This document shows, piece by piece, positions 1-597 of a DNA stretch of 597 bases. The translations under genes were made by a program, and so were the position numbers. Origin of the DNA: Escherichia coli (GTDB lineage Bacteria > Pseudomonadota > Gammaproteobacteria > Enterobacterales > Enterobacteriaceae); the NCBI RefSeq assembly GCF_003334255.1, contig NZ_QOWU01000214.1. One strand, written 5' to 3'. The stretch's first letter is position 1. Every line of letters starts with the position of its first letter. The notes below the pieces were generated by a model. The model ran no database searches. It was given only the letters and a program-made list of their open reading frames with translations, and was not told the DNA's origin.

Positions 1-1
1 T

Positions 2-8
2 AAGGAGG
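2..8 (+). promoter_or_regulatory. Shine-Dalgarno ribosome-binding site for ORF1 (AAGGAGG), 4-nt spacer (AAAT) before ATG at 13
   Basis: Seen directly: a 7-nt match to the canonical SD core at 2..8, followed by ATG at 13..15. The spacer is slightly short but within the working range. The TAA at 1..3 is in frame with ORF1 and could be the stop of an upstream gene, which cannot be verified because the window starts here. Confidence 0.7.
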
Positions 9-12
9 AAAT

Positions 13-264
13 ATGGGATACGGTTTACTGGATATTGCGAATCAGTCACGGCGTGAGGCATTACAGGGAATAAGTGATGCAGACAGACGACGTGAAGAAA
101 TTGAGGCGTCAAACAAGATGATGGCGGCGCAACAGAAAGCACAGCACAAGCAGAATATTGGAACGGGAATTGGTAGCGGTGCTGCTGTGGGGGCTGCCGT
201 TGGTGGCCTTCCCGGTGCCGCTATTGGTGCAGTCATCGGTGGTCTTGCTGGTTCGTTGTTTTAA
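13..264 (+). CDS. Small hypothetical membrane protein (83 aa) with a C-terminal glycine-zipper hydrophobic domain (possible two-helix hairpin); function unknown
   Basis: Complete ORF from ATG 13 to TAA 262..264 with a strong upstream SD. Residues 1-48 are hydrophilic and charged (RREALQ...DRRREEIEASNKMMAAQQKAQHKQN). Residues 49-83 are Gly/Ala/Val/Ile-rich with no charged residue, and glycines sit at 52, 56, 60, 64, 68, 72, 76 and 80, giving seven consecutive GxxxG units. A GGLPG motif at residues 64-68 splits the hydrophobic stretch into halves of about 15 residues each, consistent with a tight hairpin. K42/H45/K46 just before the hydrophobic stretch fit the positive-inside rule with a cytoplasmic N-terminus. 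Family assignment is by architecture only. Confidence 0.8.
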   Translation: MGYGLLDIANQSRREALQGISDADRRREEIEASNKMMAAQQKAQHKQNIGTGIGSGAAVGAAVGGLPGAAIGAVIGGLAGSLF

Positions 265-268
265 GGAG
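263..268 (+). promoter_or_regulatory. Shine-Dalgarno site for ORF2 (AAGGAG), 6-nt spacer before ATG at 275; overlaps the ORF1 stop codon (translational coupling)
   Basis: Seen directly: TAAGGAG at 262..268, where TAA is the ORF1 stop and AAGGAG the SD. ATG at 275..277 is the first start codon after the in-frame TGA at 272..274. Confidence 0.75.
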
Positions 269-274
269 TGGTGA

Positions 275-597
275 ATGAGCGGATTTGCACAGGGGTTACT
301 TGCCGGATTCAGCACTGTTGACCAGGCAATGACCCGTCGTAAGGAGCTTGGTTTGCGAGAAGCACAGCTTGCTCAGCAACAGAAAAATAACGAGCGCGAT
401 TTTGAGTTTGCGCAGTCGCAGTTTGAACATAATAAAAACGTTGATCAGCGTGACTTTGATTACAAAGCCAAAGTTGATGACCGTGATTATGCACTGCAGG
501 AAAGGGAGTTTAACGCCAACCAGAATTACCGGAATGCGTCGCTGGGTATGGAGCAGCAGCGACTCCGGATGCAGAAATACAACCAGCGACGGCTTGA
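275..597 (+). CDS. Hypothetical protein, 3'-truncated by the window (at least 107 aa); N-terminal short hydrophobic/glycine-zipper-like segment followed by a Q/N/R/D-rich low-complexity region; possibly a phage virion-internal or membrane-associated protein
   Basis: ATG at 275 with an SD at optimal spacing, and the frame stays open to the end of the window (last full codon 593..595). It is absent from the supplied ORF track, presumably because it has no stop. Translation begins MSGFAQGLLAGFSTVDQAMTRRKELGLREAQLAQQQKNNERDFEFAQSQFEHNKNVDQRDFDYKAKVDDRDYALQEREFNANQNYRNASLGMEQQRLRMQKYNQRRL. G3, G7 and G11 form a GxxxGxxxG unit. The 107 visible residues are about 14% Gln and 11% Arg with no Cys, Trp, Pro or Ile. 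The functional guess is inference only. Confidence 0.78.
   Translation, partial: MSGFAQGLLAGFSTVDQAMTRRKELGLREAQLAQQQKNNERDFEFAQSQFEHNKNVDQRDFDYKAKVDDRDYALQEREFNANQNYRNASLGMEQQRLRMQKYNQRRL

Follow-up and report, generated by a model that had tools for sequence, protein, structure and literature searches.

When a stop codon runs without a break into the ribosome-binding site of the next gene, does the arrangement mark translational coupling, or a close packing of genes that can each be started on its own? This question is raised by a stretch of 597 nucleotides (nt) of Escherichia coli DNA (contig NZ_QOWU01000214.1 of assembly GCF_003334255.1), hereafter the window, by which we mean the whole stretch. 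Here, TAAGGAGG occupies 1-8 and a second TAAGGAG occupies 262-268, and the ATG codons of two genes, ORF1 (ATG 13-15) and ORF2 (ATG 275-277), begin 4 and 6 nt past the respective motifs (window 1-15 reads TAAGGAGGAAATATG and 259-277 reads TTTTAAGGAGTGGTGAATG). An initial annotation had taken these junctions for the recurrent signature of a compact, translationally coupled operon, and its positions and spacings for the two motifs all agree with the sequence. A pattern search recovered a third copy that it had missed, at 340-346; the + strand of the window thus carries TAAGGAG three times (at 1, 262 and 340) against a chance expectation of 0.06 from dinucleotide shuffles, with at least three copies in 0 of 200 shuffles.

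We posit, with high confidence in the explanation as a whole, that 1-8 and 262-268 would be the ribosome-binding sites of two genes that follow one another on a long polycistronic mRNA, transcribed late from a 933W/phi24B-type prophage, each spacer having probably shrunk to the minimum (9 and 10 nt) that holds a Shine-Dalgarno (SD) sequence outside the upstream coding sequence. With a spacer so minimal, the upstream stop would therefore directly abut the purine core, and the UAA would add three A-U pairs to the helix formed with the 3' end of 16S rRNA (…CCUCCUUA-3'). The first site would start ORF1, which encodes a small membrane protein with a glycine zipper, and the second ORF2, which encodes a virion protein of 421 amino acids (aa). 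A ribosome terminating at either stop is expected to cover the next SD and AUG, such that some hand-over by termination and reinitiation is likely, and the same open, strong SDs would also permit independent initiation.

The value of the motif lies mainly in pinning down where the genes start and how the operon is laid out here. Four E. coli strains have chromosomes that match the window at 100% identity, and a 40.6-kb locus from such a 100%-identical chromosome (L002, in which the window is 20001-20597) supplies its surroundings. The TAA at 1-3 (+ strand) is the stop of an upstream gene of 148 aa (L002 19557-20003), which is the open reading frame that the initial annotation had anticipated there; its phi24B orthologue is gp50 (GenBank vb_24B_45), the gene numbers of the phi24B preprint (10.64898/2026.04.10.717836), which differ from the GenBank locus tags, being used throughout. 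The TAA at 262-264 ends ORF1 (called as an open reading frame at 13-264, + strand; 83 aa, with an N-terminal helix and a C-terminal glycine-zipper membrane segment), so the stop of ORF1 is, as had been claimed, the beginning of the second motif (262-268, + strand), where it is fused to the SD core GGAG of ORF2 (265-268). Reading of the sequence places an in-frame stop just upstream of both ATGs, 13 and 275; that of ORF2 is a TGA (272-274, + strand) directly before its ATG, because of which 275 is its earliest possible start. The 5' part of ORF2 (275-597, + strand) then runs off the window, the full gene spanning L002 20275-21540. As a separate observation, the upstream gene and ORF1 share a reading frame and are separated only by TAA GGA GGA AAT, such that readthrough of the TAA at 1-3 would fuse them; this common frame is not conserved, the gaps of relatives at this point ranging from -1 to 13 nt.

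The consensus extended SD, UAAGGAGGU, is the exact complement of the 3' end of 16S rRNA, the tail of which reads ACCUCCUUA. Window positions 1-8 match the consensus in 8/9 bases and 262-268 in 7/9, and both sites combine complementarity to 16S rRNA with a start codon, a few nt to their 3' side, that opens a real gene. Upon scoring the 20 nt upstream of each of the 25 gene starts in L002 against this tail, the extended SD of ORF1 (UAAGGAGG; 1-8, + strand) emerged as the strongest of the locus, with a duplex of -12.1 kcal/mol and 8 contiguous pairs, and that of ORF2 ranked sixth of 25 (-8.8 kcal/mol, 7 contiguous pairs). The UAA lengthens the pairing because UAAGGAGGU complements the 16S 3' end, and its replacement by CCC puts its worth at -2.6 kcal/mol at each site. 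The UAA is both the stop codon and the 5' end of the extended SD helix, and not merely a stop preceding an SD; in contrast to a free-standing consensus SD, it doubles as the functional stop of the preceding gene. In three diverged loci (L052, L054 and L061) TAAGGAG is a free-standing SD before the first gene of the cassette described below; therefore, we regard it as primarily a ribosome-binding word and only secondarily a stop codon.

The accessibility of these sites bears on coupling by RNA unfolding, wherein a hairpin masks the downstream ribosome-binding site until the upstream ribosome opens it, a mechanism known in other phage gene pairs (review PMC12548453). Folds of ~90 nt at the junctions of the window, however, show no stable structure over the SD or the AUG; shuffled controls fold with stronger energies (z of +0.39 and +1.02 for the two junctions), and the centroid structures leave the SD unpaired. 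We consider this mechanism very unlikely here.

TAAGGAG is not a locus-wide signature, but is confined to the two junctions of the window. The + strand of the 40.6-kb locus holds only the three window copies, both strands together hold 5 against 2.87 expected, which is no enrichment, and the motif is found at none of the other 22 gene junctions in L002, which display ATGA-type overlaps, an SD within the upstream gene or longer spacers. The further TAAGGAG junctions that the initial annotation had foreseen along the locus are hence missing, and the heptamer, limited to two junctions and a minority form at the first of them, does not qualify as the recurrent signature that it had proposed. This is seen in the close relatives, namely the 30 distinct sequences among 47 (the window and 46 IMG/VR loci): the TAA of junction 1 (1-3) is invariant in 30/30, and position 6 is A, giving TAAGGAGG, in 11/30 and G, giving TAAGGGGG, in 19/30. 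The window thus carries the minority allele, with a perfect 8-nt SD, and the G allele still pairs by a G-U wobble (-11.2 kcal/mol). The orthologous genes of phi24B (HM208303; gp50/gp49/gp48, i.e., vb_24B_45/46/47) have the same gaps as the window and an identical junction 2, ttTAAGGAGTGGTGAATG; junction 1 of phi24B, TAAGGGGGCAATATG, has the G allele, whereas the window has A.

The third copy (340-346, + strand) is a coding by-product, lying in ORF2 as cgT AAG GAG, which codes for Arg22 Lys23 Glu24. Close relatives vary between GAG and GAA in this copy and between TTG and CTG six bases downstream, both changes being synonymous. We also considered whether this copy, placed 6 nt before the in-frame TTG at 353-355, might serve an internal start of ORF2, and rejected this candidate in light of the same synonymous variation and of the more distant relatives, which have cgtaaagcg or cgtaaagaa at this point.

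A different reading would hold that TAAGGAG is a repeated regulatory word, i.e., a protein or small-RNA site or a programmed pause, of which the three copies act together. The excess over chance in the window and the confinement of all + strand copies of the 40-kb locus to 346 nt are in its favor. Nevertheless, the copies are without flanking similarity and do not form part of a longer repeat; the first is in its G form in the majority of the relatives; the third, in addition to its synonymous variation, has disappeared from more distant relatives in which the Arg-Lys motif is retained; in diverged relatives TAG or TGA is combined with other purine cores; and Rfam has no match in the window, the nearest being a sub-threshold sok-like match upstream. 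We judge this reading to be extremely unlikely.

If the heptamer is not the conserved element, what is? The window genes belong to a five-gene cassette: four small genes lie packed together (gaps of 2, 9 and 10 nt), and a fifth, after them, encodes a giant LPD38 polyvalent protein. In L002 these are a first gene of 218 aa (18898-19554; 2 nt to the next), the upstream gene of 148 aa (19557-20003; 9 nt to the next), ORF1 (20013-20264; 10 nt to the next), ORF2 (20275-21540; 68 nt to the next) and the LPD38 gene of 2793 aa (21609-29990). Membership is given by both sequence identity and gene order with phi24B gp51-gp47, and the order is the same in L002 and in phi24B. Across relatives the sizes of the products are about 210 aa, about 130-150 aa, about 80 aa, about 420-460 aa and the giant protein.

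A search for homologous proteins gave only close E. coli relatives among its 120 best matches. In contrast, a profile-free search of 1.84 billion representative proteins recovered full-length homologues of ORF2 at 23-41% identity, and tblastn matched about 100 Vibrio phages. Vibrio phage 1.205.O has homologues of all four small E. coli genes (pairwise E of 6e-15, 4e-6, 7e-10 and 5e-13) in the same order, with a giant gene after them; two of its junctions read catTAGGAGtagttATG and tttTAGGAGGccgcaATG, featuring TAGGAG and TAGGAGG. Ten further loci at 25-41% identity were fetched, for a total of 12 lineages compared; the cassette order is found in 9/10 of these loci, and the remaining one, L057, includes no DNA ahead of its small gene.

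In this comparison the geometry is conserved and not the heptamer. The gap between the small gene and the ORF2-like gene is 9-12 nt in 11/12 lineages, with protein identity down to 25%. The stop directly abuts the purine core in 9/12 lineages and lies at most 2 nt from it in 11/12. The nine abutting junctions, with a hyphen placed after the stop, are TAA-GGAG, TAG-GAGG, TGA-GAGG (twice), TGA-GGGGGG, TAA-GGGGG, TGA-GGGAGG, TGA-GGGGG and TAA-GGTGATC. The spacing ahead of the small gene varies (five lineages have -1; others have 1, 2, 2, 7, 9 and 13 nt), and the other cassette junctions are mostly -1 or -4 overlaps or gaps of at most 13 nt. The proteins on the two sides of the conserved junction retain their N-termini at 25-41% identity (MGYGLLD.. 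for ORF1, more generally MGYGL(L/I)D, and M(S/D/N)GFAQGL.. for ORF2), and the C-terminus of the small protein is likewise conserved, as ..G-(S/A)-L-F (..GSLF in ORF1). As codons for this ending cannot spell a purine-rich SD, the SD would have to sit in the minimal spacer. The exception, L061, is consistent with this proposal: its small protein ends in ..G-E-I-F, an SD is provided within the gene by the codons ggg gag, and the overlap with the next gene reads TGATG.

Are the genes joined by these spacers transcribed together? If instead internal promoters lay at the junctions, ORF1 and ORF2 would be separately transcribed. We found nothing in favor of this: the gaps of 9-10 nt are too short for a promoter or a terminator and are just enough for an SD, a scan detected no sigma-70-like site in the window (L002 20001-20597), and 194 of 201 characterised E. 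coli pairs of this spacing are polycistronic (PMC10666635). We attach next to no likelihood to it, and co-transcription of the window genes is well supported. The only terminator-like hairpins, which carry T-runs, lie ahead of the first cassette gene (L002 18856-18875) and past ORF2 (21572-21591), that is, ~1.1 kb upstream and ~1.0 kb downstream of the window, in line with the suggestion of the initial annotation that promoter and terminator are to be sought elsewhere. In Stx phages, a Q-modified, terminator-resistant polymerase transcribes the late genes, starting at pR' (PMC8065619; PMC7547250). Readthrough of the second hairpin would be the simplest reading, because the giant gene downstream of it encodes an abundant virion protein. 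Similar T-runs, accompanied by the 3' side of a possible GC-rich stem, were seen by eye just upstream of the start of the giant gene in L053 and L054. A literature search for transcription-start or transcript maps of the Stx late operon returned nothing specific to this region, and a paper on gene expression in phi24B lysogens makes no mention of the cassette genes.

The products of the cassette place the junctions among virion genes, as the initial annotation had surmised in pointing to phage late and structural clusters. A preprint on phi24B that combines cryo-electron microscopy (cryo-EM) with virion proteomics counts gp51, gp50, gp48 and gp47 (the orthologues of the first cassette gene, the upstream gene, ORF2 and the LPD38 gene, the last with 2811 aa) as virion proteins that were not resolved by cryo-EM, and its authors propose that gp47 is an encapsidated ejection protein (10.64898/2026.04.10.717836). 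Averaged copies are about 22 (gp51), 36 (gp50), 30 (gp48) and 19 (gp47), with an estimate of about 30-55 copies per virion for gp48 (10.64898/2026.04.10.717836). For gp49, the orthologue of ORF1, a low signal was obtained in virion preparations (6, against 83-179 for its neighbours), with detection of the peptide EALQGISDADR, and the authors set it aside as a probable contaminant, a 'homolog of a bacteriocin' (10.64898/2026.04.10.717836).

ORF1 matches PHROG 594 (E 2.6e-41) and the Pfam family Gly-zipper_YMGG (E 7.3e-7), and its phi24B counterpart (47590-47841; L062 1391-1642) is annotated as 'bacteriocin' or 'YMGG-like'. All relatives examined, the Vibrio phages included, have the small glycine-zipper gene in their cassette, and we consider the 'bacteriocin' label probably wrong; several RefSeq phage records likewise apply it to the 83-aa protein. 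In one diverged locus (L060 2373-2990) the small protein reaches 205 aa through a low-complexity insert rich in Ala, Thr and Gly, situated between the conserved N-terminus and the glycine-zipper C-terminus; the ORF2-like gene of this locus overlaps the giant gene by 4 nt. ORF2, the counterpart of gp48, matches PHROG 15571 (E 1.3e-66) and has no sequence matches in Pfam, NCBIfam or the PDB. Its AlphaFold2 model (pLDDT 81) predicts a single N-terminal helix of ~125 residues, a small beta domain surrounding the most conserved residues (G204, G242, P248, T250 and D259) and a helical C-terminus. This model retrieved nothing significant among PDB folds (best E 0.09) and matched only its own family in BFVD.

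With genes, sites and products thus delineated, we return to coupling, which the initial annotation had read directly from the junctions. The compact operon that it envisaged stands, as a same-strand block with gaps of 2, 9 and 10 nt. Its translational coupling fares less well, the junctions being unstructured and of the +9/+10 class. In E. coli there are 203 gene pairs at +9 to +12 nt (PMC10666635), and the window junctions, which have the same spacing and likewise join genes on the same strand, fall in this class; they differ from those pairs in belonging to a prophage late operon rather than being chromosomal, and in that the UAA adds three SD pairs. Huber et al. 2023 found efficient reinitiation at -8 to +6 nt, a range that excludes the window gaps, and regard pairs at +9 to +12 as likely independently initiated (PMC10666635). 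Classical coupled pairs have stop and start codons that overlap (ATGA, TGATG) or nearly do so, examples being trpE-trpD and, at +3, galT-galK (review PMC12548453). The window genes resemble these in their tight packing within one operon, and the other junctions of the cassette family do use -1 and -4 overlaps. Unlike the classical pairs, the window junctions are non-overlapping, with the SD outside the upstream gene, and coupling at them is putative. They are an already known, ordinary way of packing co-transcribed phage virion genes.

The strongest version of the coupled reading would be obligate termination-reinitiation, by which the neighbouring SD would retain the finishing ribosome (30S or 70S) for initiation at the next gene, a process that would fix the ratios of the cassette proteins; this is what the initial annotation had in mind. 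With gaps of 9-10 nt, both the SD and the AUG that follow lie under a terminating ribosome, the 9-12 nt geometry persists in all but one of the 12 lineages alongside cassette junctions that are mostly -1 or -4 overlaps or otherwise no longer than 13 nt, the copies of gp51, gp50, gp48 and gp47 in phi24B agree within about 2-fold, and short spacings are enriched among genes for complex subunits (PMC10666635). Conversely, the window gaps lie outside the efficient range cited above and within the spacing at which independent starts are likely, reporter results at short positive distances are variable (PMC10666635), both SDs are strong and unstructured so that a free 30S can bind, and the gp49 signal is far below that of its neighbours, the last being weak evidence because few tryptic peptides are possible. 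Thus, translational coupling at the window junctions is plausible but unproven, and we lean against its being obligate, while regarding this as a serious contender.

Several points also weigh against our own preferred reading, in which the two motifs are ribosome-binding sites in minimal spacers of a long late mRNA with some hand-over between genes. TAAGGAG at junction 2 is invariant in 30/30 of the distinct close relatives, but the flanking coding bases (278-294) are as invariant and the relatives are overall too similar, because of which this invariance is not specific and has low power. Reinitiation drops steeply with distance in E. coli reporters (PMC10666635), and we infer both the single mRNA at this locus and any coupling on it. 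Further, the hairpins on either side of the four-gene block may mean that it is transcribed or processed as a unit of its own, instead of being part of a plain readthrough transcript.

At a more speculative level, the strictly kept 9-12 nt junction with its abutting stop and SD might be under selection, the hand-over setting the ratio of two partners in a membrane-inserting ejection complex. We deem this rather unlikely as matters stand. If true, the small protein hitherto dismissed as 'bacteriocin' or contaminant would genuinely belong to the machinery by which these podoviruses eject their DNA. Given its tightness and conservation, the spacing offers a reasonable basis for asking whether these proteins are produced in constant proportions to build a DNA-ejection complex. 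The locus context is of modest practical value, given that orthologues of the cassette proteins have been detected in purified virions of short-tailed Stx-type phages.

Turning to the wider occurrence and surroundings of the locus, 420 of 5426 complete E. coli genomes contain the window, which also matches 186 phage records at 80-95% DNA identity, nearly all of them of the short-tailed, Stx-converting 933W/phi24B type (Sepvirinae). In the prophage with the exact match to the window, the late region contains a truncated tail-fibre pseudogene as well as an insertion of IS1 (L002 7213-8670 and 16431-17128); this prophage may be defective. The record of phage GER2 carries an 'attR' annotation directly before the first cassette gene (L001 7873-7884; MG710528.1 69100-69111), which would put the virion-protein genes of the cassette outside the prophage; either the annotation or the layout of the record looks inconsistent. 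Finally, just upstream of the cassette, the late region of the L002 prophage harbors a hok/sok-type toxin-antitoxin locus (18060-18348), comprising a Hok/Gef coding sequence and a sok-like RNA that scores 41 bits, under the Rfam gathering score of 59, and the diverged locus L052 has a HOK_GEF gene in the same position.

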